Shown one piece after another: positions 4,503-22,668 of a stretch of DNA of 26,564 nucleotides. The notes under the pieces were generated by a model. The model was not told the DNA's origin. It saw only the letters and a program-made list of their open reading frames with translations, and did not search any database. The stretch comes from Acidimicrobiales bacterium (GTDB lineage: Bacteria; Actinomycetota; Acidimicrobiia; Acidimicrobiales; Acidimicrobilacustridaceae). Positions within the stretch are counted from its first letter, which is position 1. Each line of letters opens with the position of its first letter. Location: the NCBI GenBank assembly GCA_038324235.1, contig JBBQHT010000026.1:1-26564 (forward strand), in the 5' to 3' direction. A program made the position numbers and the translations under genes.

Positions 4503-4534
4503 CCCGGAGAAACGCGATTGGGGCGCTCGCGGCG

Positions 4535-6036: not shown

Positions 6037-7164
6037 ATGAGTCTGCGCACCGCTCGCCCGAGTCCCGGACTGTCGGGGTTGATGGCCTCGCGTCAGACTG
6101 GTCGCATGACTCGACGTGGGGTGGTGCGGTGCTTGGTGGCCGCCGCGCTGTTCGGTGTCTCGACCCCGCTCGCGTCGCGCCTCGTGGGCGACCTCGACAC
6201 CCTGACCCTCGCCGGGTTGCTCTACCTCGGAGCGGGCCTGGCGGTCCTCCCCGCCTGCATCCGCACGCCACCATCACCTGTCGCCCTCCGTCGGAGCTGG
6301 CGACCCTTGACCGTGGCGGTCATCGCCGGCGGTGCGCTCGGCCCGGCGCTGCTGGTCGCGGGCCTCGCTCGCACCGAGCCCACCACGGCATCGCTGCTGT
6401 TGAACCTCGAGTTGGTCGCCACGGTCGTCCTCGCGGCCCTGTTCTTCCGGGAGCACCTCGGCGGACGCATGGTGGTCGCGGTCGGCCTCGTCACCCTCGC
6501 GGGCGCGTCACTGGCGTGGACTCCGGGCGTCGGATTCAACGCTGGGGCCGTGTTCGTCGCTGCCGCGTGCCTGTGTTGGGGTCTCGACAACAACGTCACC
6601 GCCGGCATCGACCATGTCGCGCCTCAGCACATCACGCTGCTCAAAGGCCTGGTGGCGGGAACGGCGAACCTGATGCTGGGACTGGCCATCGCCAGGACCG
6701 CGCTCCCCCCGTTGCACGCAGTGGCGGCGGCCCTGCTGATCGGTGGAGCCGGCTACGGGCTGTCGATCACGTTGTGGGTGCAAGGGGCCCGCGAGCTCGG
6801 GGCCGCCCGCGGTCAGGTGATCTTCGCGACGGCGCCCTTCATCGGGGCGATCGTGGCGTGGCAGATGTTGGGTACACCGATCACCACCGCGGCGGTGCTC
6901 GCGGCGGGGGTGGCGGCCATCGGCGTCGGGTTGGCGTTGCGTTCGGGTCATCACCACGCGCACCAACACGTCGTCATGGACCACGATCACGAGCACAGCC
7001 ACGACGACCCCCACCACGATCATGGCCACGCTGATGGCGTCGCGGGACGCCACAGCCATCAGCACGTGCACGCCGAGTTGGTGCACAGCCATCCCCATGT
7101 CCCGGATCTCCACCACCGCCACCGCCACCATCACGGCGATGGAGCACCGCCGCCCGGTACGTGA
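6037..7164 (+). CDS. DMT-superfamily (EamA-like) transporter with a roughly 70-aa His-rich C-terminal tail.
   Basis: I count about ten hydrophobic helices in an EamA-like duplicated arrangement. The tail reads HHHAHQHVVMDHDHEHSHDDPHHDHGHADGVAGRHSHQHVHAELVHSHPHVPDLHHRHRHHHGD. The start is uncertain: the ATG at 6037 could be replaced by in-frame ATGs at about 6082 or 6106. Confidence 0.65.
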   Translation: MSLRTARPSPGLSGLMASRQTGRMTRRGVVRCLVAAALFGVSTPLASRLVGDLDTLTLAGLLYLGAGLAVLPACIRTPPSPVALRRSWRPLTVAVIAGGALGPALLVAGLARTEPTTASLLLNLELVATVVLAALFFREHLGGRMVVAVGLVTLAGASLAWTPGVGFNAGAVFVAAACLCWGLDNNVTAGIDHVAPQHITLLKGLVAGTANLMLGLAIARTALPPLHAVAAALLIGGAGYGLSITLWVQGARELGAARGQVIFATAPFIGAIVAWQMLGTPITTAAVLAAGVAAIGVGLALRSGHHHAHQHVVMDHDHEHSHDDPHHDHGHADGVAGRHSHQHVHAELVHSHPHVPDLHHRHRHHHGDGAPPPGT

Positions 7165-7245
7165 CGGTGAACGTCACCAGGCCCTCGACATCCTCCTCGA
7201 CAACGCGCTGCGCCACGGCGCCGACCTGAAGCGGCCGTCGGTTGC

Positions 7246-8442
7246 TCAGCCCGTGAACGTGGGCTGCACGTTGAGCGGCGTGGCCGCAGCCGCCGCAGGC
7301 ATCGTCGTCGATGAGGTTGGCAAGGGGGTTGACGACGACGATGACGATGACGGCGGCAGGGCGGGCGTCACCGTGGTCGTCGTGGCGGGGACGGGGGCCG
7401 CAACCTGCACCTTGGCGATGCGGTCGCCCTTGCCTTCGGTGAACCAGAGGTTGCCATCTGGTCCGGGCGCGATCAGGAGCGGGCCGGCTGCGGGAGAGAT
7501 GCCGGTGGCGAACTCGGTCACGACGCCGGAGGGGGTGATGCGCCCGACGCGATCGCCGTTGAGCTCGGTGAACCAAAGGTTGCCGTCAGCGCCGGGGGCG
7601 ATGCCATCGGGCCCGGCTCCGGGAGAGATGCCGGCGGCGAACTCGGTCACGATGCCGAAGGGGGTGATGCGCCCGACGCGATTGCCGTTGAGCTCGGTGA
7701 ACCAAAGGTTGCCGTCGGCGCCGACGGCGATGGTGGCAGGCACGCTGCCGACGTGGATGCCGGCGGCGAACTCGGTCACGACGCCGGACGGGGTGATGCG
7801 CCCGATCCGACTGCCGAGGTGCTCGGTGAACCAGAGGTTGCCGTCGGGCCCTGCGACAAGGCGAGTCGGACCGCTTCCCGCAGTGATTCCAGCCGCGAAC
7901 TCCGTCACCGTGCCGCTGGGGGTGATGCGCCCCATCCGCTCGCCGGCGGACTCGGTGAACCACAGATTGCCGTCGGGCCCCGCCGCAATCCCGTACGGCG
8001 CACTGCCCGCGGTGATGCCCGTCGAGAACTCGGTCACGGTGCCGGTGGGAGTGATGCGCCCGATCCGGTTGCCCGCGGATTCGGTGAACCACAGGTTGCC
8101 GTCGGGCCCCGCGGCGATGCCGTACGGCGCACTGCCGGCGGTGATCCCGGCCGAGATCTCGGTGATCACGCCGGTGGGAGTGGCGTGACCGATGCGGTTG
8201 CCGACCGCTTCCGCGAACCAGAGGTCGCCGTCGGATCCGGTCACGATCCCATCGGGGAACGCACCGGCGGTGATAGCCATCGAGTATTCGGTGACCGTTC
8301 CATCAGCGGCAGTCGCGGCGCCCACTCTCGGCATGGCCACCAGGGCAACGGGCATCACCAAGACGACGGCCGCCCGTAGCAGGTGAACCCGGCGCAGCCG
8401 CGCCAACCCTGACCACGGCCTGGAGACGGGTCCACGGCTCAC
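7246..8442 (-). CDS. Secreted Vgb-like (streptogramin-lyase-type, COG4257) beta-propeller repeat protein. It carries a Ser/Thr/Pro-rich C-terminal region and ends in ...QPTFTG.
   Basis: The N-terminus has a signal-peptide-like hydrophobic segment (RRVHLLRAAVVLVMPVALVAMPRVGAATAADG). Seven or more roughly 43-aa blades follow the pattern TEF..GIT.GS.P.GIA.GPDGNLWFTE..G.RIGRITP.G.V. The tail is TTTTVTPALPPSSSSSSSTPLPTSSTTMPAAAAATPLNVQPTFTG, then the stop. GAGGTGG lies 6 nt upstream of the GTG at 8442. Confidence 0.7.
   Translation of the reverse strand: MSRGPVSRPWSGLARLRRVHLLRAAVVLVMPVALVAMPRVGAATAADGTVTEYSMAITAGAFPDGIVTGSDGDLWFAEAVGNRIGHATPTGVITEISAGITAGSAPYGIAAGPDGNLWFTESAGNRIGRITPTGTVTEFSTGITAGSAPYGIAAGPDGNLWFTESAGERMGRITPSGTVTEFAAGITAGSGPTRLVAGPDGNLWFTEHLGSRIGRITPSGVVTEFAAGIHVGSVPATIAVGADGNLWFTELNGNRVGRITPFGIVTEFAAGISPGAGPDGIAPGADGNLWFTELNGDRVGRITPSGVVTEFATGISPAAGPLLIAPGPDGNLWFTEGKGDRIAKVQVAAPVPATTTTVTPALPPSSSSSSSTPLPTSSTTMPAAAAATPLNVQPTFTG
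7500..7760. repeat. Near-identical tandem repeat inside the first Vgb-like gene, about 129 bp (one beta-propeller blade, 43 aa).
   Basis: The segment 7500..7590 (GCCGGTGGCGAACTCGGTCACGACGCCGGAGGGGGTGATGCGCCCGACGCGATCGCCGTTGAGCTCGGTGAACCAAAGGTTGCCGTC) recurs at 7629..7719 with only a few mismatches, a period of 129 bp. A more diverged copy follows at about 7758. The protein blades '...ITAGSAPYGIAAGPDGNLWFTESAGNRIGRITPTGTVTEF' appear twice almost verbatim. Confidence 0.55.
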
Positions 8443-8594
8443 CTACCACCACCTCAGGATCCGCTCGTTGTGACCTCGGGTCGAGTCGCGCGTCGCGCAG
8501 GTCTGCGGTGACGAAGATAGCTTCATCGGTCGCCAGGATCATGCCGGGCAACCTGAGGGGTCGATTGGCAACATCGGCCGTCCCGCGAGTGCCG

Positions 8595-9755
8595 TTAGCC
8601 GGTGAACGCTGGTGCCGTCTTCACCGCGACCGCGGGTGCGCTGGGCTGAACGGAAGTCGGGGGCGCCGTCGTCGGGGTCACCGTGACCGGGACCGTGGTC
8701 GTCGGCGCCGCGGTCGTCGTGGTGGTCGGGACCGGGGTGAGGTCGAGGCGGCCGATCCGGTTGGACTCGGTGAACCAGATGGCCCCGTCGGGGCCCGCCA
8801 CGGGTGTGGTCGGTTCGCTGTCCGCGTTCGGGAGCGGGTAGACGGTGAGGGTTCCCGTCACGGTCAGGCGGGCGATGGTGTTGCCCACCTGGGCCACCAC
8901 CCAGAGGTTGCCGTCAGGACCGGTGGTGATGCCCTCGAGCACGTCTCCTGCCGCAGCGACGTCGAACTGGTCGGTCAGCACCCCAGATGTCGTCATGCGC
9001 CCGACGTGTTGGCTGGCGCTGAGCGTGGTCCACAGCGCGCCATCAGGTCCGGTGGTGATGTCGAACGGGCCCGAACCGGCGGTGACCGGGAACTCGATCA
9101 AGGTGGCGAGCGGGTCGGGGGTGGCCGGGGCGAAGCGGCCGATGTGGTCGGAGTCCTGTTCGGTGAACCACAGCAGGCCGTCGGGGCCCGCGGTGATGTC
9201 GGTGGGGAAGTTGTCCGCGGTCGGCAGCGGGTACTCGGTGATCGATGCGCCCGGATCGGCGGCCGCGGGATCGATGCGGCCGATCTGGTTGCCGGTGGAC
9301 TCGACGAACCAGAGCGCGCCGTCCGACGCGCTGGTGATGCCGAGCGGGTAGCCGTCCGGGGACGGGATGTCGAACAGGTCGATGGCGCCGGCGGGGGTGG
9401 CCCGGCCGATCTTGTCGCCGAAGGCGTCGTAGGTGAACCAGAGGTTCCCGTCCGCGCCGACCGTGATGCTGTGCGGCTGGCCGCTGCCGGTGATGGGGAA
9501 GGTCGACACCGCGCCCGCGGTGGTGATGCGGCCGATGCGGTTGGCACCCAGCTCCGTGAACCACATGGCCCCGTCCGGACCGACGACGATGTCCGATGCC
9601 CGCACGTCGCCGACGCCGAGGTCGTACTCGGTGATGGCCCCGAAGGCGCCGACCGGCGCCACGGTGGCGCCCGCGATGACGAGGATCGCAGTCAGCGCCG
9701 CCGTCGACACCGCCACTGCTCGTCGGCGAACTGTGCGGGTCTGGTGGTGGCGCAT
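8595..9755 (-). CDS. Second secreted Vgb-like beta-propeller repeat protein, a paralog of 7246..8442. It has a Thr/Pro-rich C-terminal region ending in ...TAPAFTG.
   Basis: The probable start is MRHHQTRTVRRRAVAVSTAALTAILVIAGATVAPVGAFG, a signal peptide, at the ATG at 9755. A GGGAG lies 4 nt upstream. Repeats follow the pattern ITEY.LP....P..IT.GPDG.LWFTE....IGR. The tail is TTTTAAPTTTVPVTVTPTTAPPTSVQPSAPAVAVKTAPAFTG, then the stop. Confidence 0.7.
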   Translation of the reverse strand: MRHHQTRTVRRRAVAVSTAALTAILVIAGATVAPVGAFGAITEYDLGVGDVRASDIVVGPDGAMWFTELGANRIGRITTAGAVSTFPITGSGQPHSITVGADGNLWFTYDAFGDKIGRATPAGAIDLFDIPSPDGYPLGITSASDGALWFVESTGNQIGRIDPAAADPGASITEYPLPTADNFPTDITAGPDGLLWFTEQDSDHIGRFAPATPDPLATLIEFPVTAGSGPFDITTGPDGALWTTLSASQHVGRMTTSGVLTDQFDVAAAGDVLEGITTGPDGNLWVVAQVGNTIARLTVTGTLTVYPLPNADSEPTTPVAGPDGAIWFTESNRIGRLDLTPVPTTTTTAAPTTTVPVTVTPTTAPPTSVQPSAPAVAVKTAPAFTG

Positions 9756-9820
9756 GGGACTCCCGGACATCGATGGAGTGTCAGCCTGCGCCCCGTCGAC
9801 CAAAGCTGCATGAGTAAGAC

Positions 9821-11347
9821 CTACTCATTTTTGGAGACCACTGGTTCGCGCGCGTCAGGTGCTCGGCCCGAGCCGCCCTGCGCGGGGGCGCCGAACCAGC
9901 GCTCGATCGCTCGAGGCAACGTCGCATCGGCGATGTCGCCGACCCAGGCGACGTGCCCGTCTGGTCGGATGAGGACGGCAGGCGGTGCGGTGATCTCGCC
10001 GACGACGGGGAGCTCCCAGACGCCGACGTAACTCGCGTCCACGAACCGGACTCGACCGGCCCACGGCGTGACGTCGAACCCGTCGGACCCCGAGAGGTCG
10101 AGGAGCACCGGGCGGGCGTCGTGCAGGAAGGCGAACATGCGCGTCGGACCGTCGGCTGTCCGCAGGTCGAGATCGGGCATGCGCCGGCCGAGCAGGGGAT
10201 GGTGTCCATCCGCCTCGTAGCAGATGTCGAGCCCGGAAATCGTCCCGGCGATGCACCGCCGGGGCCCGTCCATGGCCAGCAGCTCGGTCACGGTCGCATG
10301 CAGCGCGCGATGGCGGTCGTCGGGAGTGATGAGCGCGGTCTGCGCCATGGTGTTCTCCTGCACGCGGGCGCCCACCGGATGCCGCTCGGCGTGGTAGGTG
10401 TCGAGCAGGCTCTCGGGCGAGGCGCCGTCGACGACCTGGGCCAACTTCCATCCCAGGTTCACCGCGTCCTGCACCCCGACGTTGAGCCCTTGACCACCGA
10501 GGGGGGCGTGAACGTGCGCCGAGTCGCCCGCCAGCAGCACCCGGCCGCGGCGGTACGACTCGGCCTGACGCGTCGTGTCGTTGAACCGCGAGATCCAGGC
10601 GGGACTGTGGGCACCGAAGTCCGATCCGTACGCCGCGACGAGCGCGGCACAGAGGTCCGCCATCGTGGGTTCGGTGGGGTGATCGATCTGCCGTTCCTTC
10701 ACCACGACCCCGTACGGGCCTCCGCCGCCGGGGTTGACGGGACCGATGCCACCGCCCTCGGGCCGGATCCCGAGGGGCGGGTCCTCGGTCATCGCGACCT
10801 CGGCGATCACGAAGCTGCTTGATGGGTCGGTTCCCGGGAAGTCGATGCCCGCGGTCTTGCGGATCAGGCTGCGCCCGCCGTCGCAGCCGACGAGGTACCG
10901 CGCTCGCAGCACCGAGTCGTCGGACAACATGACGTCGACACCGCCATCGTCCTCGATGAAGCCCACCACCTCGCACGCGCGGATGGTCGGGACCCCGAGC
11001 TCTTCGATCCACGCGGCCAGGATGCACTCGAACTCGCGCTGGGAGAGCGCGAGCAGGTAGTTGTGGCGGGTCGGGAAGTCACTGATGTCCAGCGGGATGT
11101 ACGCGTAGCCCACACCGGGGTACGGCTGTCCCTCGGCGAGGAACCGCTCGGCCACCCCCCGCTGGTCGAGCACCTCGATGGTGCGCGAGTGCAGGCCACG
11201 AGAGCGTGGGCTGTCCAGCTCCTGGGTGGCGCGCCGTTCGACGATCACGACGTCCACTCCGGCCAACGCCAGCTCGGCCGCCAACATCATCCCGGTCGGC
11301 CCCCCTCCGGCGATGACCACGGCGGGCTGGATCAGCGGCGCATCCAT
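9821..11347 (-). CDS. Class A FAD-dependent monooxygenase (PHBH-fold aromatic hydroxylase, Rox/RdmE/PgaE-like) with a C-terminal thioredoxin-like domain.
   Basis: Three hallmark motifs are present: the GxGxxG Rossmann (VVIAGGGPTGMMLAAELALAGVDVVIVER), the DG motif (RYLVGCDGGRSLIRK), and the GD/FAD motif (RVLLAGDSAHVHAPLGGQGLNVGVQDAVNLGWKLA). It also carries LLDTYHAERHPV and a C-terminal ...LIRPDGHVAWVGD...LPRAIERWFG that is typical of rifampin-monooxygenase-like enzymes as I recall them. GAGGAG lies 7 nt upstream of the ATG at 11347. Confidence 0.8.
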   Translation of the reverse strand: MDAPLIQPAVVIAGGGPTGMMLAAELALAGVDVVIVERRATQELDSPRSRGLHSRTIEVLDQRGVAERFLAEGQPYPGVGYAYIPLDISDFPTRHNYLLALSQREFECILAAWIEELGVPTIRACEVVGFIEDDGGVDVMLSDDSVLRARYLVGCDGGRSLIRKTAGIDFPGTDPSSSFVIAEVAMTEDPPLGIRPEGGGIGPVNPGGGGPYGVVVKERQIDHPTEPTMADLCAALVAAYGSDFGAHSPAWISRFNDTTRQAESYRRGRVLLAGDSAHVHAPLGGQGLNVGVQDAVNLGWKLAQVVDGASPESLLDTYHAERHPVGARVQENTMAQTALITPDDRHRALHATVTELLAMDGPRRCIAGTISGLDICYEADGHHPLLGRRMPDLDLRTADGPTRMFAFLHDARPVLLDLSGSDGFDVTPWAGRVRFVDASYVGVWELPVVGEITAPPAVLIRPDGHVAWVGDIADATLPRAIERWFGAPAQGGSGRAPDAREPVVSKNE

Positions 11348-11579
11348 GCGACAACTCCTCGGCTCGTGTCCCGGGCCGGGATCGGCGCGGCAAACGAGTC
11401 ATCATCAGCACGGTCCGCTCGTTTGCGGCAAGCCCCCTCCCCCACGTTACGATTCGTACGGCGGCGGGGGGCCGAGGGGCCGACGGGCCCAGGACGATGG
11501 GCGCGCAGGAGCGCCAGCGGAGCCCGCGGCAGCTCACCGTGGGCCGCGCCGAACGCCCGGCTGTCGCTCCCTCAGCTCA

Positions 11580-11933
11580 TCAGCCCTGGCCCAACCGACC
11601 GAGGTGGTTGTCAATCACCGAGGTGTCCCGGATGACCGAGGTGCCGCTGACGGCGATCACGCCGCCAAAGATCACGGACGTGCCCGAGGTGCCGATCGTT
11701 TGTGCGTAGGTCGCTTTCACCGGCCCGTTCTTGCCGACCTGGGCGAAGCCTTCGACTTCGGAGCCGGCGAGGGCCTCTTCGATCTCAGCCACGGTGTCGG
11801 GACGCAGTCCGGCGTCGATCAGCGTGTTGTGCGGGTCGGCGATCAGCGCATCGCGTAGTCCTGGTTCCGCTTCGAGTCGGGCGATGAGGGCATCGGCGTC
11901 GGCTTGGGCTTCGGCTTCGGTGTACACGGTCAT
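11580..11933 (-). CDS. Small protein (117 aa) with an NHLP/Nif11-like leader domain and a Cys-free, Ser/Thr/Gly/Val/Ile-rich repetitive C-terminal region. It is a candidate RiPP precursor peptide.
   Basis: AGGAGG lies 5 nt upstream of the ATG at 11933. The N-terminal half reads EAQADADALIARLEAEPGLRDALIADPHNTLIDAGLRPDTVAEIEEAL. This resembles NHLP/Nif11 leader consensus as I remember it (..LIAKaw.Dp.f...LLaDPkaaLaeaGi.lPegv...). The C-terminal half reads ...ATYAQTIGTSGTSVIFGGVIAVSGTSVIRDTSVIDNHLGRLGQG, with three TSVI motifs (two of them GTSVI), an internal GG, no Cys, and two Arg. The DNA carries the matching direct repeats (ACCGAGGTG three to four times at 11597..11690 on the + strand). It is divergently oriented to the tridomain synthetase 113 bp away. 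Confidence 0.5.
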   Translation of the reverse strand: MTVYTEAEAQADADALIARLEAEPGLRDALIADPHNTLIDAGLRPDTVAEIEEALAGSEVEGFAQVGKNGPVKATYAQTIGTSGTSVIFGGVIAVSGTSVIRDTSVIDNHLGRLGQG

Positions 11934-12046
11934 GGTTTCCTCCTGTCGCGTGTCCGTCCCGACGATCGGGTGCGCCGGGGGTTACACCGCTTCGACAGTT
12001 CTCCGGCGCGGCCGCCGGCGGCGGCGGCGTTGGGTACGTTGTCCAC

Positions 12047-14983
12047 GTGGCACCAGCGACTGATCGATCTGAGGGCGAGACCAGCGAGGAAGACAAAGTG
12101 CGAGCCCGGGTTCGCGCTCGCTGTGATCGCGACGGTGACCGGCAGTGGGCGGTGCACGTCGATCCGTCGGACACCTGGGTCCACGCCCAACCGCTGGACA
12201 CGCGTCTACCGACGCAGGGGTGGAAGCTGCACATGTCAGCGGGGCTGTCGTCGGCCGACGAGGTGCTCCGCAAGGCGCTCGACGTGCTGGTGGACGCGGG
12301 GGTGAGCTTCAAGGTCGCCCGCTCGCGAGCTGTGCTCGACGCCTTGAACTGGGGCTTCGCCGGAGGCAGCCAGATCGGCAAGTTCATGACCGTCTATCCC
12401 GTGGACGACGCGCAGGCGGTGAAGGTCGCCGCGGCGCTGCACGAGGCCACCATCGGCGAACGGGGTCCGCGCATCCCTTCGGACCGGCCCCTCGTTGCCG
12501 GATCGGTCGTGCACTACCGCTACGGATCCTTCGCCACGCGCTACCTGCGTCTCGCGACGGGCGAGGTGGTGCCCGCGATAGAGGACCCCGACGGCGCGCT
12601 GGTCCCCGACGAGCGGCGGATCGCACCACCGAGCTGGGTGGATGACCCGTTCATCCGCGCCGGCGCAGGGGCCCGCGCGCCCGCCGACCCCCAACGATCC
12701 GCGATCGGCGGCCGCTTCGTGTTGACCGGCACGATGCTCCAGACCGCCCGCGGGTCGGTGTTCCTCGCCGTCGACCTCGACGGCCCCCGCCGCTGCATCG
12801 TGAAGCACGCCCGCCGCGACTCGCTGCTCAACGCGCGCGGAGCCGACGCGCGCGACCGGCTGCGAGCGGAAGCCGCGACCCTCGAGCGCCTCGGCGCGGA
12901 TGGTCCCTGGCCGCAACTGCTGGCGCTCGTGGACGACGGCGACGACGTCTACCTCGCGGAGGACGAGGTCCGCGGCACCACGCTGGCGCAGCTCATCACG
13001 ACCCGCATCGCCGCCGGTCGCCACCTCGACCCTGCGGTGATCGTGCGCTGGGGCGTGGCCATCGCCGAAGCACTCGATCGGATCCACGGCCGCGGCCTGA
13101 TCGTCCGCGACCTGAAGGCGGCGAACATCATGGTGGCGCCCGCCTCCCCTGCTGACGACGTCGAAGACTCGGACCGGGCGGAGCAGCCCGGCGGCCCGGA
13201 CCGCACGGACCGCACGGACGGCGAGCGCGAGGTGTGGCTGATCGATCTGGAGTGTGCCGACGCCGGCGCGTCCACGGCCGACGGCACGCTCGGTACCCGC
13301 GGCAGCTGCTCACCTGCGCAACGTCGGGGCGACGCGCCCACGATCGCGGACGACATCTTCTCGCTGGGCGCGCTGCTCTGGTTCATGGCCACCGGCGCAG
13401 ACCCGGCCGCGGCGCCCGACGCCACCGCGCTCGGCGATCGTCAGCTCGGGTGGCTTCGCCCGGAGCTCGGTGAACCGTTGGTCCAGGTGATCACCACGTG
13501 CCTCGCCGACGATCCGCACCACCGGTACCGGGACACAACCGAGGTGGCACGGGCACTGGCCACGACACGCGATCTCGCCGAGCGCCCCTCAGCCCTCCCG
13601 ACCTCGACCGCGCCATCGGCGCCGCGGGTGGGGACAGCCGCGCCCACCAGCCCGACCTCACGAGTCGGCGAGCGCGACCCCGACCTCCACGCTCACCGCG
13701 CGACGGCCGACGCGCCGTCGACGGCGGTGTGGGCGCGCGCCGCCCGGGACATCGGTGCGGTGCTCGTGGAACGGGCCGACCGCCGCGGCGATGATCGGGT
13801 GTCCTGGCAACCGGCATCCGGCGCGCCGCTCACCGATCTCGCCGGTGGCGACGCGGGGGTGGTGCTCGCCCTGAGCGCGTTGGCTCGTGTGTTCCCCGAC
13901 GCCGTCCCCGGTCTCGACGAGGTCATCCACGCGGGCGCTCGCGGACTGCTGCGCGCCCCCGGCTACGGCGGCGACCCCTCCCCTGCGCTCTTCAGTGGCG
14001 AGAACGGGGTCGCGCTCGCGATCCTCGCCGCCGGCACCGTCCTCGCCGAGGCCTCGCTCATCGACGCGGCCGCGGCCTGCGCCGAGACCGCGCGACGGCG
14101 TGCTCACGGTGGCTTCGATCTGCTCGACGGATCTGCCGGTCGCGCGCGCTCGATGCTGTGGTGGCACCAGGCGACGGGTGATCCACGGTGGCTCGACGGG
14201 GCCTGCGTCGCCGGCGAGCACCTCGTCGCGCACGCCCGACCGATGACCCTGGAGGGCGGTCGCGGGTCGGGCCGGTACTGGACGGCCGGTCCGCCCGATC
14301 GCCAGGTCGAGCCCCGCCTGCAGCCGGGGTACGCCGGCGGCGCGGCCGGCATCGCCGACTGCCTGCTGCAGCTCTACGCCGCGACCGGCGACCAGATCTT
14401 CTGCGCGACGGCGTGCGCGGCGCTTCGCGCGGTCGTGGCGGCGGCGGTGCCGGCCCTCGACGGTGATCACGGCATCACCTGGCCCATCGCGGCCGGCGAG
14501 CCAGAGGTGCGGATCGCATGGTGCCACGGCACGACGGGCGTGGCCACGACGCTGCTGCGCGTGCGCGAGCTCGGCCTCGAGACGGGCGCCGCGACCGAGC
14601 TCGATCTGGCCGCCCTTCTGCCCGATGCCATCGATCCCGCGATCGGCCGCGACCTCGACGGGCTGATCACCGCGGCGGCGACCACAGTCGCCGCGGGCAC
14701 GCGGGCCGCGAGCTCCAGCCAGCGCGACGGACTCGCCGGGTCGCTGGAGCTGCTGGTGGACCTGTCGGGCTCCTACCACACCGCCGCCGACCGCGTCGCG
14801 CCGGCGGTCGCCGATCTCGCCGACCTCCTGCTGGCGTTCGTACCGAGCCCCGATCATCCCGATCGGATCGCGCCGGCCTCCGGCTACCTCGACGGGCTGA
14901 GCGGGGTGCTCGCCGTCGCCCTCCGCCTCGCCGCGCCGGCGACGCCGGGTCTGCTGGGGCCGCAGTGGTGGTTCGCCAGCTGA
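12047..14983 (+). CDS. Tridomain class III/IV lanthipeptide-synthetase-like enzyme (LanKC/LanL-type). It has an N-terminal pSer/pThr-lyase-like domain, a central Ser/Thr protein kinase domain, and a C-terminal LanC-like domain.
   Basis: The N-terminus has QGWKLHMSAG...GKFMTVYP, the lyase-domain signature seen in RamC, LabKC and VenL-type enzymes as I recall. The kinase block includes the VAIK-like RCIVKHARRD, the catalytic loop LIVRDLKAANIMV, LIDLECAD, and DIFSLGALLW. The C-terminal LanC-like block has LFSGENGVALAIL, GFDLLDGSAGRARSMLWWHQ, GYAGGAAGIADCLLQLY and IAWCHGTTGVATTLL. The canonical zinc-ligand triad (Cys...Cys-His-Gly) is only partly present: there is no second CHG motif and the GxAHG His is replaced. 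The GTG at 12047 is the first in-frame start. An alternative GTG at 12098 is preceded by GAGGAAG 5 nt upstream. Confidence 0.7.
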   Translation: MAPATDRSEGETSEEDKVRARVRARCDRDGDRQWAVHVDPSDTWVHAQPLDTRLPTQGWKLHMSAGLSSADEVLRKALDVLVDAGVSFKVARSRAVLDALNWGFAGGSQIGKFMTVYPVDDAQAVKVAAALHEATIGERGPRIPSDRPLVAGSVVHYRYGSFATRYLRLATGEVVPAIEDPDGALVPDERRIAPPSWVDDPFIRAGAGARAPADPQRSAIGGRFVLTGTMLQTARGSVFLAVDLDGPRRCIVKHARRDSLLNARGADARDRLRAEAATLERLGADGPWPQLLALVDDGDDVYLAEDEVRGTTLAQLITTRIAAGRHLDPAVIVRWGVAIAEALDRIHGRGLIVRDLKAANIMVAPASPADDVEDSDRAEQPGGPDRTDRTDGEREVWLIDLECADAGASTADGTLGTRGSCSPAQRRGDAPTIADDIFSLGALLWFMATGADPAAAPDATALGDRQLGWLRPELGEPLVQVITTCLADDPHHRYRDTTEVARALATTRDLAERPSALPTSTAPSAPRVGTAAPTSPTSRVGERDPDLHAHRATADAPSTAVWARAARDIGAVLVERADRRGDDRVSWQPASGAPLTDLAGGDAGVVLALSALARVFPDAVPGLDEVIHAGARGLLRAPGYGGDPSPALFSGENGVALAILAAGTVLAEASLIDAAAACAETARRRAHGGFDLLDGSAGRARSMLWWHQATGDPRWLDGACVAGEHLVAHARPMTLEGGRGSGRYWTAGPPDRQVEPRLQPGYAGGAAGIADCLLQLYAATGDQIFCATACAALRAVVAAAVPALDGDHGITWPIAAGEPEVRIAWCHGTTGVATTLLRVRELGLETGAATELDLAALLPDAIDPAIGRDLDGLITAAATTVAAGTRAASSSQRDGLAGSLELLVDLSGSYHTAADRVAPAVADLADLLLAFVPSPDHPDRIAPASGYLDGLSGVLAVALRLAAPATPGLLGPQWWFAS

Positions 14984-14990
14984 GAAAGAA

Positions 14991-15545
14991 TCAGCCTCGG
15001 GTCATGCCATCGATGGCGACGGTGATCGCCAGGATGAGCGCAGGATCCACACCCGGTTCGATCTCGACGCCATAGGTCTCACGCACCCGAAACCACTTCT
15101 TCGAGATCTCCGCGACCTTGTCGCCGTTGCGCTCGATCTCGTACTCGTGGTCAACGATGTTGCCGTGGGCCTTGAGGTCGTCGCCCCCGTCCACATCGAT
15201 CTTGAAGCGCTCCCGCACCCCGACGAGCGCCTTGTGCACCGTCGCACTCGAACCGTCGAGCTCGATCGCGATCCTGTCGCGGATGCTCAACTTCTTCTCG
15301 CGGATCAACGCCACCTGGTTGCCGTTCATGTCGTCGAGCTTCCACGTGTCGCGGATGCGCATGGCCTTGCCATCGACATGAAACGCCTTGGCCCCGCCTT
15401 CGTCCTCGATCCAGTAGTCGTCGCCGATCGACAGGAGGTCCTGGCGCATCTGGAAGCGCCGCTTCGGCGGGCCCTCGTTGCGGTGGAGCAGTCCCATGAG
15501 CGTCCTTCCGTCGAGCGGCCATTCCGCGTCCTCGTAGCGCTTCAC
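14991..15545 (-). CDS. LURP-one-related (LOR, DUF567; tubby C-terminal-like fold) protein.
   Basis: The protein reads ...RFQMRQDLLSIGDDYWIEDEGGAKAFHVDGKAMRIRDTWKLDDMNGNQVALIREKKLSIRDRIAIE...YEIERNGDKVAEISKKWFRVRETYGVEI, which is typical of the LOR family as I remember it. It starts at the GTG at 15545 with no clear SD. Its stop is only 7 nt from the convergent synthetase stop. Confidence 0.55.
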   Translation of the reverse strand: MKRYEDAEWPLDGRTLMGLLHRNEGPPKRRFQMRQDLLSIGDDYWIEDEGGAKAFHVDGKAMRIRDTWKLDDMNGNQVALIREKKLSIRDRIAIELDGSSATVHKALVGVRERFKIDVDGGDDLKAHGNIVDHEYEIERNGDKVAEISKKWFRVRETYGVEIEPGVDPALILAITVAIDGMTRG

Positions 15546-15639
15546 CGTACGTCATCGCGGCTGTCGGCAGCGTCATCCAAAACGGGTGAAAAGCGAGCGC
15601 CGTGCCTCGCGACTGGGTGGTCTCGCCGACGACTTCGGT

Positions 15640-16371
15640 TCACTCCGCGCGTCGCCGGAACCCCTCGATGATCGCCCGGAGCTGGGCCCCGTTGGTGGCC
15701 ACGGCCGGTGCGTCAGGACCGACCTCCACCGCCTCGGTCCCCCACTCGGTGGCCGCCAGTTCGTCGAACACCGCCCGGGCGATGGCCTGCGCCCTGCTCT
15801 CGGCCTGCACGACCAGGCTGGTGCTCGTCGACGGCGTGCGGGCGATGCCGAGGTGCGGCCACCCGAGCGGCAGGTACACCACGTCACCGGGACGAGCGAC
15901 GCACTCCCAGTCCGGCTCGTGGATCGCCACGACGCCGGCCGACGCGTCCCCGAGCATCCGCCGCCGCCACTGCTGGGGCGGCACCCTCTCGGGTCGAGCG
16001 AGCCACCACTGCTTCACGCCGTCAAGGTGCACCACGAAGTTGTCGCTATCGTCCACGTGGGCCCCGATCGTGCCGAGCCCGGTGGTGCGGACCACGTCGA
16101 ACCAGACCGCGGGAGTACCGAACAGCGCTTCCGCGGCGGTGAGCGCCTCCGCCACCGCGGGGTCACGGATGCCTTCGAGGAACTGGACCTCGCCGTCCCG
16201 ACGGAGCACCGGCGAGTCGCCAGGCCCGGTAGCGGCAAGCACCCACGAATCGATCGTCGCCGAGGAGAGGCCACGCGGGAGCACGTGATCCACACCGCCT
16301 CGCAGCAGCACCGGGGACCGGCGCCAGTGCTGAGCGAAGAACGCGTTGTCGAGGAGGTCGGTCAGGGACAT
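15640..16371 (-). CDS. Cupin-4/JmjC-domain Fe(II)/2-oxoglutarate-dependent oxygenase (ribosomal-oxygenase-like hydroxylase).
   Basis: It reads MSLTDLLDNAFFAQHWRRSPVLLRGG (cupin_4 N-terminus), then GAHVDDSDNFVVHLDGVKQWWL (the HxD facial triad plus the double-stranded beta-helix core), then ...VVYLPLGWPHLGIA (the distal His). The ATG at 16371 was chosen over the ORF-track start at 16527, because 16527 would overlap the strongly supported GNAT start at 16506. Confidence 0.6.
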   Translation of the reverse strand: MSLTDLLDNAFFAQHWRRSPVLLRGGVDHVLPRGLSSATIDSWVLAATGPGDSPVLRRDGEVQFLEGIRDPAVAEALTAAEALFGTPAVWFDVVRTTGLGTIGAHVDDSDNFVVHLDGVKQWWLARPERVPPQQWRRRMLGDASAGVVAIHEPDWECVARPGDVVYLPLGWPHLGIARTPSTSTSLVVQAESRAQAIARAVFDELAATEWGTEAVEVGPDAPAVATNGAQLRAIIEGFRRRAE

Positions 16372-16505
16372 CGGATCGAGGTCGGCGGATTCGGTAACCG
16401 TTTCGGATCGAGAGCGTCCGGTAACATACCAGCCAACCAGCTCCGGTCTCCGCCTTCCGTCGCCTCCGTGGCCGGTTCGGGGCCGGCCGATAACCAGGAG
16501 GTCCC

Positions 16506-17276
16506 ATGGGCCGTGTCCTCGGGTCAACTGTCAATGCCGGCATGAACGCAGCCACCGGCTTCGGGGGCGTCGGCCCCCGCCGGTTCGGTACGCAGTTCGT
16601 TACCCCCCGCGGGATGGGCGGGCCCGGCCTTGCCGCGCAGCCCTTCGGTGGCGCGGACGTGCTCGGGTTCGAAGCAGCGCTGGTGAGCGAGGCGGTGCTG
16701 ACCGGCCGGAACATCGTGCTGCGTCCGCTGAACACAGGTGACCGTGACCACTACTGCGACACCGTCGAGCGCAACCGGCCGCGGCTCGATGCCAGCGGAA
16801 CCGGTCCGGCGCACGAGCAGACCGCCCCCGCCACGCGCGGCGCGTACGACGAGCTCATCGAGCACTACGACCTCCTCCGCTTGCTCGATCAGGGCCATTG
16901 GTTTGCGCTCGTCGACGGCGACGAGGTCATCGGTGAGATCGGGCTCGAGGGCGTGGTGCGCGGCCAGGTGCAATCGGCGTTCCTCGTGCTCTGGGTCGAC
17001 GAGGCCCACGCGGGCCGGTCCCTCGCGCCGGAGGCGTACGTGCTGCTCGCTCGACATGCGTTCGAGGACCTGGGCCTGCACCGCGTGGAGGCCGCCGTGC
17101 TCACCGACAACGAGGCCGTCAGGCGGGCGTTGGCGAAGCTCGACATCCGCAGCGAAGGAGTCTCACCGCGCTACCTGCTCGTCGAGGGCGAGTGGCAGGA
17201 CCACGAGCGCTTCATCCTCACCGCCGAGGAGTGGACGGAGCGACGCGAAGCGCTCATCGCCGAGTGGGTCGGCTGA
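16506..17276 (+). CDS. GNAT-family N-acetyltransferase (RimJ/RimL-like) with an unusual Gly-rich 50-aa N-terminal extension.
   Basis: AGGAGG lies 4 nt upstream of the ATG at 16506. The core reads LTGRNIVLRPLNTGDRDHY...WFALVDGDEVIGEIGLEGV...FLVLWVDEAHAGRSLAPEAYVLLARHAFEDLGLHRVEAAVLTDNEAVRRALAKL, typical of RimL-type GNATs. The N-terminal extension is MGRVLGSTVNAGMNAATGFGGVGPRRFGTQFVTPRGMGGPGLAAQPFGG. Confidence 0.7.
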   Translation: MGRVLGSTVNAGMNAATGFGGVGPRRFGTQFVTPRGMGGPGLAAQPFGGADVLGFEAALVSEAVLTGRNIVLRPLNTGDRDHYCDTVERNRPRLDASGTGPAHEQTAPATRGAYDELIEHYDLLRLLDQGHWFALVDGDEVIGEIGLEGVVRGQVQSAFLVLWVDEAHAGRSLAPEAYVLLARHAFEDLGLHRVEAAVLTDNEAVRRALAKLDIRSEGVSPRYLLVEGEWQDHERFILTAEEWTERREALIAEWVG

Positions 17277-18538
17277 TCCAGCGGCACCTGCTCGTCCTGC
17301 ATCCGCACCTCGTCCCCCACCCCGCCGGCGGCCTGCTCGTCGACAGCACCACCGGCGCCCGGATCACGCTACCGGCCTCGCTGTTGGCGCTCGCGTCCGC
17401 CTTCGTCACACCCGCGGACCCGGAACGGGTCCTCGCGGCTCGGGCGACCGGCGCCGACCACAGCGATGGCCGCTCGCAGCTCGCCGGGCTCCTCCGGCGC
17501 GGACTGCTCGTGTCTGCGTTTCGCCTGCCGCCGCCGCGCATGGGGCTGTTCGACGCGCCGCGCACGACGCTCGCCCAGGCGTTGGCCAGCCCTGGACCGA
17601 TGGTGGTCGTGTGCGCGATGCCCTACGACGCCGGCACGAGCGGTCGACCCGGCACGCGCGACGCCCCGCAGGCCATCCGCGAGGCCAGCACCGACCTGTA
17701 CTGCCACGATCCGCTCGTCCGCGCCGGATGGTGTGATCCCGTCCTCGACCGTGTGATCCTCGAGGGCGTCGGGCTCGCCGATGTCGGCGACCTCGCGCCG
17801 GTCCTTGCGGCGCGCAACGGTCCGTCGTTCGACGCACTGGCGGGCAACGTCGAGCTGATCATCGCGGGCGGGGCGTTCCCCGTCGTGCTCGGCGGGGACC
17901 ATTCCCTCGCCCTCGCCGCCATCCGGGGGGCCGCCCGAGCTCGACCGGGCATCGGCGTGCTGCACCTCGACGCACATGCCGACGTCGATGTCGGCATCGT
18001 GTTCGGCGGCGAGTCCGGGTCCGGGTCGACCCGCGAGCCAACCGCGGACGCATCCGGCGCAAGCGGCGCACCCGACGAAATCAGCGCTGACGATGGTCGA
18101 TCGGACGACTGGTGGCGCACGGTGCTCCACCACGGCAACGTCATGACGTTCGTGGCGGCCGAGCCCAACGTGGCGTCGCTCGTGCAGGTCGGCATGCGTC
18201 AGCGCTCGCCGGTGCCGGTGCCCGTGCCCGCAGGGACCCGACGCCTCCCCGGCGTCGTGGGCGTGGTGGACGTGCTCGCGGCCATGGACCCGAACCTCGA
18301 CTGGTACGTCTCGCTCGATGTCGACGTGCTCGACCCTTCGGCGCTCCGCGGTACCGGCACACCCCTGCCCGGCGGCTTCACCGCACGCGAGCTGGCCGAC
18401 CTGCTCGCCGGTGTCATCGCCGCCCGCACCGTGATCGGCCTCGACGTCTGCGAACTCATCCCGGATCACCCATCCGAGGTGGCGCTCGTCGCCGACCTCA
18501 TCCTCCAGATCCTGGCCGCCGCCCTTCCTCGACACTGA
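17264..18538 (+). CDS. Fusion protein: an N-terminal PqqD-like RiPP recognition element (RRE) followed by an arginase/agmatinase-family (ureohydrolase) domain with a complete binuclear-Mn ligand set. It is a candidate peptide arginase.
   Basis: The arginase motifs are all present: VLGGDHSLALAAI (GGDHS), VLHLDAHADVDVG (DAHxD), and YVSLDVDVLDPSAL (SxDxDxxDP). The N-terminus is ...MVVVCAMPYDAGTSGRPGTRDAPQAIREAS. About 100 aa precede the core: HPHLVPHPAGGLLVDSTTGARITLPASLLALASAFVTPADPERVLAARATGADHSDGRSQLAGLLRRGLLV. This fits the PqqD pattern (..geallld..tg.il.LNetaa.iwelldg..t.eei...la.........a..dv..fl.eL...GLl). The frame has no ATG. Candidate GTG starts are at 17192, 17231 and 17264. The GTG at 17264 overlaps the GNAT stop (GTGGGTCGGCTGA), which implies translational coupling. 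Confidence 0.6.
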   Translation: MGRLIQRHLLVLHPHLVPHPAGGLLVDSTTGARITLPASLLALASAFVTPADPERVLAARATGADHSDGRSQLAGLLRRGLLVSAFRLPPPRMGLFDAPRTTLAQALASPGPMVVVCAMPYDAGTSGRPGTRDAPQAIREASTDLYCHDPLVRAGWCDPVLDRVILEGVGLADVGDLAPVLAARNGPSFDALAGNVELIIAGGAFPVVLGGDHSLALAAIRGAARARPGIGVLHLDAHADVDVGIVFGGESGSGSTREPTADASGASGAPDEISADDGRSDDWWRTVLHHGNVMTFVAAEPNVASLVQVGMRQRSPVPVPVPAGTRRLPGVVGVVDVLAAMDPNLDWYVSLDVDVLDPSALRGTGTPLPGGFTARELADLLAGVIAARTVIGLDVCELIPDHPSEVALVADLILQILAAALPRH

Positions 18539-18696
18539 GCACCTTCGCGCTGCTGGCACGATGGCGCCGCCGCGGCTTCGGCCCCGCGGCTGGTGGAATT
18601 GCTCGCAGGAGCCATCTCCAACCGCGCCGGGCGCCTTCGTTGGAGCGAGCACCCCTGCGCACGGCATCGGTCGCCGCAGCCGATGCCTGGCACCGC

Positions 18697-19860
18697 TCAC
18701 ACCCGGTGGACGTACGCCTGACAGTACGGGCAGTTCGTCTCGGTGGCGCCAGGCGGGAGGGTCATGGTGGCACCACACGATGTGCACGGGATCTCCGCCG
18801 CGCCGACATCGAGCCGCCGGCCACACCCGTCGCAGACCACGATCGTCGCCCCCGACAACTTGTGCAGCTGCCCGCCGCATCCGCCACAACGGCGCGGCTC
18901 GCCCTGCTCCGGCACGATCGGGACGTAGACGTTGGTGAGCCCCGCCCACTCGATGAGCTGGTGGGCCGAGTCTTGCGGCAGAAACGCGATCCAGGCCTGG
19001 CAGAAGCTCGAGCAGGCCAGCTTCGTGTCGAGGTGCGCGGTCTGGTCGGGATTGAGGTCGTTGACACCGAGGTCCTGATTGAGCCGGTTCACCACCTCGA
19101 TCTGGCGCGACAGCGTCTCGCACATCGGCCAGAACGACGCCGGATCGACCGCCATCGGCATCATCGACGTGTAGCGCAGCCCGACGGCGCGCTGCTTCAT
19201 CTCCTCCGTGACCGCCACCGCCGCAGGCTCGAAGGCGGTGACCGCCGCCGCGGCGGCGAGGTAGTCGACCAATCGTTGCCGGTAGGTGAGATCGCCGCGA
19301 GCCCGGTGGGAGAACGAACCTGGGAAGCTGGAGACATACGCGTCGTAGCACCGGTGCTGCAGCGCGAGGTACCCGTCGCGGTCACCCGCGCCCTGCGCCG
19401 CTCGGAGCTGGGCCTGCATGTCGTTCACCCACATGGCGTAACCCAGGTCCGGGGTGGTGGTGCTCTCGCCGGCACGCCGCATGTCGAAGTCGACCAGGGA
19501 GCCGCAATAGTCGCAGTACACGTAGGCGGTGACCGACGCGAGCTTCTTCGGCGCGCCGCAGTTGGCACACGTGCACCGCTTGACGTACCCGGCGGCCGGT
19601 GGCTCGATGATCGCGAGCACGCGGTGAGCCCAGGTCGCGGCCAAGGCCATCGCGTCCACGTTCGCGCCGCCGGTCCCACGCATCGCACCCATGGCGGCAC
19701 GGGCGTGCGGATCGGCATACAACTGGTGGGCGAGGCGCAACCCGTCGAGCATCGACGGTGCCGCCGGCATCGGATGGCCCGCGGCGCTGGTCACCGGTTG
19801 CTTCTTGCGGAACAGCGCCACACGGACCTCCCGGCCGAGTCGAACGGTGACGAATCGCAT
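18697..19860 (-). CDS. Hypothetical protein with three zinc-ribbon motifs.
   Basis: The three ribbons are [11 protein letters not shown]...(15)...[16 protein letters not shown]...(14)...CDGCGRR, and CTSCGATMT...(13)...CPYCQAYV. The probable start is MRFVTVRL at 19860. The ORF-track start at 19980 would add a 40-aa Cys/His-rich extension that overlaps the gadB upstream region. The start is uncertain. Confidence 0.45.
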
Positions 19861-21803: not shown

Positions 21804-22292
21804 TTACTCCTTGCCGTGCAGCGCCTCTTGGATCTCGGCTTCCTGCTCGGCGCTGAGCGAGGTCTTGATGACGGTGCCGCCGAACTTCGAGAGCTCGGCG
21901 AGCGCCCGATCGGTGGTCATCTGCTCGACGATCATGAACAGGGCCGAGGTCCCGGGCTGGATCTGCGCGCGCACCTGGTCCTGGAACTGCTTGTCGATCG
22001 TCGACTTGCCCAGCTTGCCGCCGAGAGCCCCGAACGCGGCGCCGAGGACCATGCCGAAGAACGGGACGAAGAACAAGATGCCGAACAGCAAGCCCCAGAA
22101 CATGCCCCACGTCGCACCCTGACCGACCACGTGCTGGTTGGTGACCGTGCGGAACTTGCCTTCCTCGTTGCGCACGATCGCCGCCAGGGCGTCGGGCTGG
22201 ATGATCAGATCGGCGGCCATGGCCTCGGCGGCGTCGAGCGCCGAGATCGCGGTCGTCGTGTCGTCATAACCGATGGCAATCAGATCAGGCAT
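21804..22292 (-). CDS. DUF1269-family membrane protein, a canonical member.
   Basis: It reads MPDLIAIGYDDTTTAISALDAAEAMAADLIIQPDALAAIVRNEEGKF...ATWGMFWGLLFGILFFVPFFGMVLGAAFGALGGKLGKSTIDKQFQDQVRAQIQPGTSALFMIVEQMTTDRALAELSKFGGTVIKTSLSAEQEAEIQEAL. This matches the DUF1269 architecture I recall: LIVITFDDE..., the Gly-zipper, ...LPAGSSALFLLV..., ...GGTVLKTSLSEEQE. The start is the internal ATG. The upstream 25 codons of the ORF track are unsupported. Confidence 0.75.
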   Translation of the reverse strand: MPDLIAIGYDDTTTAISALDAAEAMAADLIIQPDALAAIVRNEEGKFRTVTNQHVVGQGATWGMFWGLLFGILFFVPFFGMVLGAAFGALGGKLGKSTIDKQFQDQVRAQIQPGTSALFMIVEQMTTDRALAELSKFGGTVIKTSLSAEQEAEIQEALHGKE

Positions 22293-22668
22293 GGGTGAAA
22301 CTCCTCTAGTGTTTGTTGAATGATGTGTCGCCAATCGTAGGCCGCTCCGCCGAACACGCCGCCACATCTGAGGTCGTCAAGCGAGGCGAGCCCGTCAGGT
22401 CGACCGGCCGAACGCACCAGTTCCGGGGGACCGCCCGGGCACCAGAGCTCGTCGCTCAGCTCCCTGGGGGGATCGTGACATGACCCGGCTCGGCGGCCCG
22501 AGGCGCAGGACTCCCACCGGTCGTGGTCTTCCAGCGCGCAGCTGCCGCGGCGAAGCTCTTCGCAAGGCCCCACACAGAACCCTGTGCGAGCGCCAGATCA
22601 TGCTGTACCCTCTCACGATCCCCCATAGCCAAGGGGACTTTGCGTATCGACCAGCTGGGGGTTGCGTC

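Follow-up and report, generated by a model that had tools for sequence, protein, structure and literature searches.

We have analyzed a stretch of 26,564 nucleotides (the window) of contig JBBQHT010000026.1, from an Acidimicrobiales bacterium (assembly GCA_038324235.1). Six genes at 9821-18538 had been proposed, in an initial annotation made from the sequence alone, to form a single locus for a peptide that is made by the ribosome and modified after translation (RiPP). We lean towards a different view, in which the interval holds two adjacent RiPP modules, each conserved separately. Module A is a divergent pair of genes coding for a precursor peptide without cysteine and a lyase-kinase-LanC tridomain enzyme derived from the LanL (class IV) synthetases. 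Module B is a cassette of three genes, a JmjC_2 (cupin-4) oxygenase, a RimJ-like GNAT and an arginase that carries at its N-terminus a domain with the predicted fold of a RiPP recognition element (RRE).

Co-occurrence was evaluated by tblastn of all the window proteins against 14 loci, with L015 judged from its gene table. The divergent pair of peptide and tridomain enzyme appears in five loci, the window, L001 (a 427-kb metagenome contig), L002 (GCA_038320935.1), L008 (a Microthrixaceae metagenome-assembled genome, MAG) and L015, and the enzymes of the last four are 65, 70, 54 and 43% identical to that of the window, respectively. No arginase, GNAT, JmjC, FAD monooxygenase or LURP-one-related (LOR) gene was found in the 1-10 kb of flanking sequence available at these four loci. 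The trio in the order JmjC(-)/GNAT(+)/arginase(+) is seen again at two loci, L003 and L010 (identities of 47-53, 62-63 and 52%), intact in L003 and with the JmjC gene cut by the contig end in L010. The genes that flank the trio there are different (DUF2804, a 587-aa secreted protein). Among the flanking open reading frames (ORFs) on these two contigs (6.4 and 5.5 kb) a scan showed neither a LanL gene nor an EVEGF peptide, and no other ORF that resembles a precursor, and when the trio region was compared with them by tblastx for a hidden small ORF, strong matches were found in the three genes only, the rest being composition noise. A test fixed in advance for the claim that the six genes are one locus conserved together went against it: four other pair loci are without the trio and two other trio loci without the pair. 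The relatives of both modules are all metagenomic and mostly located on short contigs.

A precursor family without cysteine

The leader of the window peptide comprises residues 1-63 and ends in an invariant G-x-E-V-E-G-F. The core is Cys-free (AQVGKNGPVKATYAQTIGTSGTSVIFGGVIAVSGTSVIRDTSVIDNHLGRLGQG), there is no Cys in the whole peptide, 11 Ser/Thr and two Arg (Arg102 and Arg113) are found after EVEGF, and the motif TSVI appears three times. This agrees with the description given initially, of a Ser/Thr-rich precursor with two Arg and no Cys behind a strong ribosome-binding site (AGGAGG). That the small ORF is a RiPP-type precursor beside the tridomain enzyme is also borne out, by the existence of a conserved family and by the divergent pairing in five loci. 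A word-indexed search recovered 10 relatives (11 members with the window peptide), and an exhaustive profile search over 1.84 billion representatives retrieved 40 of them at E <= 1e-3. In the alignment of the 11-member family the leader, M-x-E-Y-T-E-A-Q-A-Q-A-D-A-D-A-L-I-A-R-L-E-A-E-P...A-L-A-G-x-E-V-E-G-F, is nearly invariant. All ten peptides of the subclade to which the window peptide belongs (P0001-P0010) are devoid of Cys, and most of them have in common the core QTIGTSGTSVIFGGVxAVSGTSV; members farther away carry the same leader and one to five Cys each. The Cys-free members of the family all have at least one Arg after EVEGF, often close to the C-terminus.

The nearest named relatives come from Microthrixaceae/Acidimicrobiales MAGs. 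Within the collection of species-representative genomes the family was found at L008 alone, reached through the LanL query, and a scan of these genomes with the peptide alignment produced 600 pattern matches, none of which was confirmed. The leader had been considered NHLP/Nif11-like. Models of the NHLP clan do match consistently across the family (TIGR04509 in 11 of 11 members, NF038399 in 10 of 11 and PF14407 in 8 of 11, with best E values of 1e-3 to 2e-4), but none of the matches reaches its curated cutoff, and for the window peptide the scores were 14.2 bits (cutoff 34), 13.3 (40) and 15.5 (48), respectively. As far as these profiles tell, the label is valid at the level of the clan only.

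The profile search also retrieved P0226, a protein of 487 aa from an organism of lower GC, with seven tandem segments that resemble the N-terminal part of the leader (DIDALIERLQ.SPEARQEYI). The leader-like helix pair is therefore also found as a repeat module of a large protein.

A LanL-derived enzyme with a degenerate cyclase site

The longest ORF of the window enzyme has 978 aa, and the start annotated in the source (12098) gives 961 aa. RamC_N, Pkinase and LANC_like are all matched by Pfam, in the lyase-kinase-LanC order typical of LanL, so that the tridomain enzyme foreseen by the initial annotation is indeed present. The NCBIfam model for LanL (NF038150) is the best family model, with 500.3 bits, under its cutoff of 650, and the one for LanKC (NF038151) gives 328.7 bits, under a cutoff of 575. 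The diagnostic motifs were tabulated from an alignment of 88 homologues of the window enzyme, and those of true LanKCs (P0202-P0210) were unlike the window ones throughout. By its sequence, the window enzyme arose inside the LanL (class IV) lineage and not from the LanKCs.

The lyase motif QGWKLHMS and the kinase motifs IVKHA and VRDLKAAN are retained in the window enzyme, and QGWKLH and RD..K..N are conserved throughout the alignment. The cyclase site of LanL consists of a catalytic His and a Cys-Cys-His zinc site (His710, Cys769, Cys814 and His815 in SgbL; PMC8341899), and the motifs AHG (the catalytic His), WCxG and CHG are retained in nearly all of the 88 LanL-like homologues. In the window enzyme AGG stands in place of AHG and RDG in place of CHG, the Cys of WCHG being the sole survivor (also when aligned with PDB 8car). 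With these changes the catalytic His has gone, and so have two of the three zinc ligands. Among the closest homologues, the combination of AGG/ASG and RDG is limited to the window and L002 enzymes (with WCHG/WCDG there), and the cyclase motifs of the L001 enzyme are ASG, WSHG and RDG. The L015 enzyme has an intact zinc site, and the peptide of the same leader that adjoins it has a Cys-rich core ending ...GGGGCAGQITTPTGTGDGGSNCCGHF.

Given a Cys-free core and the absence of the catalytic His and of the Cys-His ligands, no lanthionine is expected, and the product would be a dehydrated non-lanthionine peptide or one that undergoes a different follow-up reaction. We infer, as the simplest reading of these motifs, a class IV lineage in which the Cys of the substrate and the catalytic residues of the cyclase were lost together, with dehydration retained. 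The module A peptide would be the substrate of the divergent LanL-derived enzyme. The kinase and lyase domains, to judge from their intact motifs, would phosphorylate Ser/Thr residues of the core and then eliminate the phosphate, leaving dehydroalanine (Dha) or dehydrobutyrine (Dhb), and a multiply dehydrated peptide without lanthionine may be the outcome.

It could be argued that module A is decaying or repurposed, so that the enzyme with its degenerate cyclase no longer modifies the peptide or has its real substrate elsewhere. The disappearance of the catalytic His as well as of the zinc ligands would fit, the L008 LanL gene is broken by an apparent frameshift, and some class III enzymes only partly dehydrate Cys-free variants in vitro (PMC8341899). 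However, the lyase and kinase motifs are fully kept, the pairing of peptide and LanL is retained on several distinct contigs and the core QTIGTSGTSVIFGG..SGTSV is kept among peptides of 53-79% identity, indicating selection on the core. We regard this alternative as very improbable.

Two details of the pair loci are worth recording. At L008 (10001-12825) the LanL homologue is split over two reading frames near residue 525, which may be a frameshift or an assembly error. Besides, a RibD_C (dihydrofolate-reductase-like) gene directly adjoins the pair in two of the five loci, at 10409-11062 (-) of L002 and 3878-4468 (-) of L015.

The RRE-arginase and its two companions

There is an overlap of 13 nt between the GTG start of the arginase and the stop codon of the GNAT, in agreement with the translational coupling noted from the beginning, and the source annotates an identical protein of 424 aa. 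By the GC content of third codon positions (GC3), the stretch of approximately 90 codons ahead of the catalytic domain is coding, and the extension is common to ten homologues. On these two grounds a start at ATG 17540, which would leave the extension out, was ruled out. The fusion to a PqqD-like RRE proposed initially had to be examined by fold comparison because Pfam was essentially negative: the N-terminal domain of the window does not match the PqqD model PF05402, and the best of nine such domains gives E = 0.19. AlphaFold2 predicts four short beta-strands followed by three helices (pLDDT ~90), for the full-length protein and the isolated domain alike. Foldseek against the PDB matches this model to TbiB1, TigE, TfuB1, MccB, LynD/TruD, PbtF-RRE, MadB, SuiB and PqqD. 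The predicted fold is that of an RRE, a winged helix with a three-stranded sheet and three helices, closest to known RREs. The model thus supports the RRE part of the claim, and the PqqD family match is what failed.

The catalytic domain matches PF00491 with 150 bits (cutoff 22). Its metal motifs GGDHS, DAHAD and DVDVLDP are intact, and the alignment shows no variation at H213, D236, H238, D240, D352 and D354. The initial annotation had referred to the known 'peptide arginases'; those are PF12640 enzymes (PMC12703449), and the window enzyme gives PF00491 alone in the Pfam scan, with DAHAD present and the other two PF12640-type motifs absent. Residues 245-280 (17996-18103, +) form a Gly/Ser/Asp-rich insertion of 36 aa that appears in no homologue and has a pLDDT <50.

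The JmjC ORF (15640-16527, -) is open to a TTG at 16527, and its likely start is the ATG at 16371, for a protein of about 243 aa. It scores 49.9 bits with PF08007 (cutoff 22) and contains the iron triad HVD(D)...WPH, as would be expected of the JmjC/cupin-4 hydroxylase that had been predicted. Its identity is 53% with the L003 JmjC and 38% with the one of the L013 cluster described below, and among solved structures it comes nearest to YcfD-type L16 arginyl hydroxylases (closest 4csw) and NO66. The GNAT begins with an extension of about 60 aa, Gly/Pro/Ala-rich and Arg-containing (GVGPRRFG...; 16506-16700, +), which carries G-A-D-V-L-G-F at 16650-16670, and the identity of 62-63% to the GNATs of L003 and L010 includes it. 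The extension is partly conserved in these two (GVGTGRAFGGRA...), and candidate roles are those of a linker, a docking peptide or a self-substrate.

The RRE domain, if the model is right, would dock on a peptide, and the catalytic domain would convert a peptidyl-Arg into ornithine (Orn). The JmjC enzyme may then hydroxylate the resulting Orn residue and the translationally coupled GNAT may acylate it, by analogy with selidamides and biphenomycin. In the selidamides, arginase action, then hydroxylation, then GNAT acylation of the Orn N-delta were shown experimentally, the lanthionine synthetase being independent (PMC8784127). In the biphenomycin pathway (pbs/bpm) an arginase makes Orn in an FRF motif and a JmjC/cupin protein (BpmG/PbsQ) then hydroxylates it (PMC12257519). 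With these precedents, the chemistry put forward initially for the three enzymes (Arg-to-Orn conversion, hydroxylation and acylation) is reasonable.

Relatives of the RRE-arginase in other clusters

Farther RRE-arginases (30-39% identity) were found in three other RiPP-like architectures, each with an Arg-containing precursor. The first (L013, L014, L016 and L017) contains a JmjC, a 63-aa peptide, a B12-binding radical SAM, an S8 protease, GAF and MFS proteins and the RRE-arginase, and its precursor ends GEVEGQDVNIFRF (...NIFRF). The second (L004, L005, L011 and one further contig) codes for homologous acidic peptides of 54-61 aa that end ...SRPRPN or ...SRPSGN, together with two Orn/Arg-decarboxylase-like pyridoxal-phosphate (PLP) proteins, GNATs and transporters, plus a stand-alone PqqD-like protein in L005. 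In the third (L018) a 40-aa peptide, MENQ...LELVTRCSCRVSPVAAP, which ends ...VTRCSCRVSPVAAP, lies ~1.4 kb upstream of the arginase with one gene between. These contexts support, as context evidence, a peptide-arginase role for the RRE-arginase family, and the RiPP setting assigned to the window enzyme is in keeping with them. The profile of the module A peptide family gave no score with the precursors of the other RRE-arginase clusters or with the GNAT extensions. A resemblance of the L013 precursor to EVEG was discarded as homology, being a short motif with no profile score.

Some additional features of these loci can be mentioned. The L013 cluster (1-11251) also codes for a large AAA_16/guanylate-cyclase protein and is biphenomycin-like, with no MNIO visible. 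The RiPP-like clusters at L004 (7498-16509) and L005 (2277-13083) include several proteins without family match and MFS or ABC exporters. At L018 (6434-10467) the precursor-like ORF of 40 aa, MENQEVQTPEIFEELAVTELEDRLELVTRCSCRVSPVAAP, precedes a 440-aa protein without family match, the RRE-arginase and a protein with a sub-threshold lipid-A-acyltransferase match, and all of them are located downstream of a MacB/FtsX permease.

One pathway or two modules

Several points weigh against the view of two separate RiPP modules with a lanthionine-free product in the first. Class III synthetases cyclize without zinc, and the loss of the ligands alone is no proof that the cyclase domain is inactive. The L008 enzyme keeps CHG (its AHG is LDG), yet the peptide that adjoins it is also Cys-free. 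The L003 and L010 contigs are too short to exclude a LanL-peptide pair a few kb off. Besides, the nearest solved relatives of the arginase catalytic domain are guanidine hydrolase, agmatinase and proclavaminate amidinohydrolase, which are small-molecule enzymes, along with guanidinobutyrase. Finally, since no precursor gene was found on the L003 and L010 contigs, the trio might act on something other than a RiPP precursor.

These last two points also favour an alternative in which module B lies outside RiPP biosynthesis. The arginase would be an enzyme like agmatinase or guanidino-acid hydrolase, active in small-molecule (polyamine or guanidine) metabolism, or the trio would act on a cellular (e.g. 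ribosomal) protein, with the winged-helix N-terminal domain serving in oligomerization or regulation. Several relatives do adjoin Orn/Arg-decarboxylase-like PLP enzymes, the JmjC_2 protein is most closely related to hydroxylases of ribosomal proteins and the GNAT is RimJ-like. We find this alternative unlikely, for in the other architectures a short peptide with an acidic leader and Arg in its C-terminal part is encoded 0.1-8.4 kb upstream of the RRE-arginase in the same gene array, and transporters, an S8 protease, a B12-binding radical SAM or a stand-alone PqqD-like protein accompany it.

The interval could also be one integrated cluster. Here the LanL-like enzyme dehydrates the peptide and the trio converts Arg102 and Arg113 into Orn, hydroxylates and acylates them, a selidamide-like pathway from non-orthologous parts. 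In its fullest version, that of the initial annotation, the FAD monooxygenase participates too. The modules are adjacent, with ~0.65 kb and one gene (LOR) between the end of the LanL gene and that of the JmjC gene. An RRE implies a leader-bearing substrate, and there is one precursor-like gene only in the window. In the phaeornamide cluster the same five functions serve one NHLP peptide (PMC8784127), and the Arg after EVEGF in every Cys-free family member would suit such a pathway. In addition, G-x-[DE]-V-x-G-F is confined, in six-frame translations of the window and of the loci then fetched, to the ends of peptide leaders and the trio-GNAT extensions. The window has two sites, 16650-16670 (+) and 11745-11765 (-), and in the other fetched proteins there is one occurrence in 119,000 residues. 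However, this shared motif was defined after both sequences had been seen, which makes it a lead and not a test. Against integration stand also the absence of any trio gene from the available 1-10 kb of flank at the four other peptide-LanL loci and of LanL or peptide at the two other trio loci. Flanking genes vary from locus to locus, conservation of the FAD monooxygenase is seen with neither module, and the window peptide has no homology to the precursors in other RRE-arginase clusters. We consider a single pathway plausible, though less likely than two modules. Under the preferred reading of two modules, module B may still act on the module A peptide, with its two core Arg, in this genome.

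We give hardly any weight to a further elaboration, in which the trio recognizes G-x-(D/E)-V-x-G-F at the end of the leader and makes (hydroxy)Orn from core Arg in the dehydrated, Cys-free peptide, and the Orn delta-amine is then added to Dha/Dhb, by the zinc-less LanC-like domain or spontaneously, to form ornithinoalanine-type rings. A crosslink of this type had been put forward, as speculation, in the initial annotation.

Gene order and neighbouring genes

Genes were called in the window (GC ~70%) from GC3 and domain searches (Table 1). The six genes of the initial annotation were all found where it had placed them, with coding supported by GC3 and with the predicted domains (in the case of the RRE, by fold). 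In the profile searches the lyase, kinase, LanC-like, arginase and JmjC domains were positive, PqqD gave no match and the NHLP-clan models gave sub-threshold matches only. A seventh gene of the interval, coding for the LOR protein, had been left unmentioned. The remaining genes of the window are unrelated (Band 7, DUF1269, EamA, two Vgb-lyase-like propellers, glutamate decarboxylase and RPE65). A scan of 9700-18800 for promoters and terminators found none, and is uninformative at 70% GC.

Table 1. Features of the interval, with their coordinates in the window and the evidence for each.
Feature	Coordinates	Strand	Evidence
FAD monooxygenase	9821-11347	-	FAD_binding_3 2e-84, Rng_hyd_C; PRK06834 769 bits
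Precursor peptide, 117 aa (module A)	11580-11933	-	ORF; AGGAGG 5 nt before ATG
AGGAGG ribosome-binding site of peptide gene	11939-11944	-	Direct sequence reading
LanL-derived tridomain enzyme (module A)	12047-14983	+	RamC_N 1e-53, Pkinase 7e-11, LANC_like 3e-19
LURP-one-related (LOR) protein	14991-15545	-	Pfam PF04525 7.9e-21
JmjC_2 (cupin-4) oxygenase (module B)	15640-16371	-	PF08007 2.8e-13
RimJ-like GNAT (module B)	16506-17276	+	Acetyltransf_3 2.4e-15; AGGAGG 16496-16501
Arginase N-terminal RRE-fold domain (module B)	17264-17545	+	Predicted fold
Arginase PF00491 catalytic domain (module B)	17546-18538	+	Pfam 1.2e-43

The FAD aromatic-type monooxygenase reported initially is present, as a member of the general PRK06834/rifampin-monooxygenase-like family (cutoff of 625 bits for NCBIfam PRK06834, which it exceeds; the rifampin-monooxygenase model gives 470 bits, below its cutoff). 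A role as tailoring enzyme was dropped, given that it is conserved with neither module: no homologue of it or of the LOR protein was found at the other loci of either one (tblastn; L015 gene table). Neither of the two has support as a cluster member, and both would be bystanders.

Among the surrounding genes, two DUF1269 genes are found in the window (4535-5116 and 21804-22367) and one in L002. The two Vgb-lyase-like propellers of the window (7246-8442 and 8595-9803, both -) have a Thr/Pro/Ser-rich linker and then end ...QPTFTG-stop and ...APAFTG-stop. Two unrelated secreted proteins of L008 (6324-7343, +, and 13071-14129, -) also end ...PAFTG-stop. These tails are not followed by a hydrophobic one, unlike LPXTG sortase signals, and may be a C-terminal sorting or processing tag.

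Significance

The combination of functions is known from the selidamides, so that as a system the locus is of a known kind. In the literature searched there was no description of a LanL subclade with an NHLP-clan leader, a conserved Cys-free core and a degenerate cyclase site, nor of RRE-fused PF00491 arginases as a recurring family of RiPP tailoring enzymes. The Cys-free LanL subclade may represent a natural case in which a lanthionine synthetase became purely a dehydratase, or a cyclase that uses another nucleophile. The RRE-PF00491 arginases would add another route by which ribosomal peptides acquire ornithine, besides those of the PF12640 enzymes and of KgrD. With a predicted built-in leader-recognition domain, they are spread over four or more cluster architectures, all of them in uncultured bacteria, and enzymes of this type are wanted as tools for peptide engineering. 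Should the modules cooperate, the selidamide logic would have been reinvented here by convergence, from unrelated parts. If the ornithinoalanine rings were true, they would make a non-sulfur 'lanthipeptide' subclass.

Comparison with known systems

The selidamides (phaeornamide, pha; kamptornamide, ksp) have the same set of functions, with the Orn hydroxylase in pha only (PMC8784127). Specifically, the pha cluster codes for an NHLP precursor, a LanM, an arginase, a hydroxylase and a GNAT (PMC8784127). This set had already been published, and the combination in the window cannot be called undescribed as had been thought. The parts are different. The window synthetase is LanL-derived and not a LanM, the arginase is RRE-PF00491 instead of PF12640, the hydroxylase is a JmjC_2 protein instead of the Fe/2OG enzyme PhaI, the GNAT is RimJ-like, the core is Cys-free and the two halves are not co-conserved. 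With LanM and PF12640 absent, the window does not belong to the selidamide type.

The class IV enzymes (VenL for venezuelin, SgbL for globisporin; PMC8341899) share the lyase-kinase-LanC architecture, and LanL is the best model for the window enzyme. In the metagenomic LanL clade to which it belongs, the others have retained their zinc site and adjoin Cys-rich peptides with the same leader. The window enzyme departs from the class IV systems by the AGG and RDG replacements, by a score below the LanL cutoff and by a Cys-free substrate, so that the defining thioether would be missing. With no Cys in the core, the product would not be a lanthipeptide of any class. The class III LanKCs (AciKC, LabKC, CurKC, ThurKC) are likewise tridomain enzymes with a cyclase domain without zinc ligands. 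This absence is what the window enzyme has in common with them; overall it is not class III, with LanL ancestry, a LanKC score of 329 against 575 and no S-x-x-S-x-x-x-C labionin motif in the window peptide.

The L013 cluster resembles those of biphenomycin, with its RRE-arginase, a JmjC related to that of the window, the B12-binding radical SAM and a precursor that ends in FRF. The differences are that PbsE is a TPR-containing PF12640 protein with the RRE on the separate PbsD, and that the window is without MNIO, radical SAM and FRF. The OspR-type arginases (PF12640; landornamide; PMC12703449, PMC10028609) have in common with the window enzyme the proposed conversion of peptidyl-Arg to Orn and urea, the ureohydrolase superfamily and a binuclear metal site. 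However, the window arginase matches PF00491 alone, OspR has no RRE and the PF12640 motifs are different (PMC12703449). KgrD, from the enteropeptin pathway, is the published precedent of a PF00491 arginase with a RiPP precursor as its substrate (PMC12703449). It is described as belonging to a radical-SAM sactipeptide pathway of Enterococcus and as needing a thiomorpholine-modified substrate (PMC12703449), and differs in these respects. Finally, the 'cyanotins' (class II, PMC7268733) are also lanthionine-synthetase precursors with leaders of NHLP/Nif11 type, and some of their cores are Cys-free. They are substrates of cyanobacterial LanM enzymes with an intact cyclase and their cores are hypervariable, whereas in the window the core is conserved and the cyclase site is degenerate.

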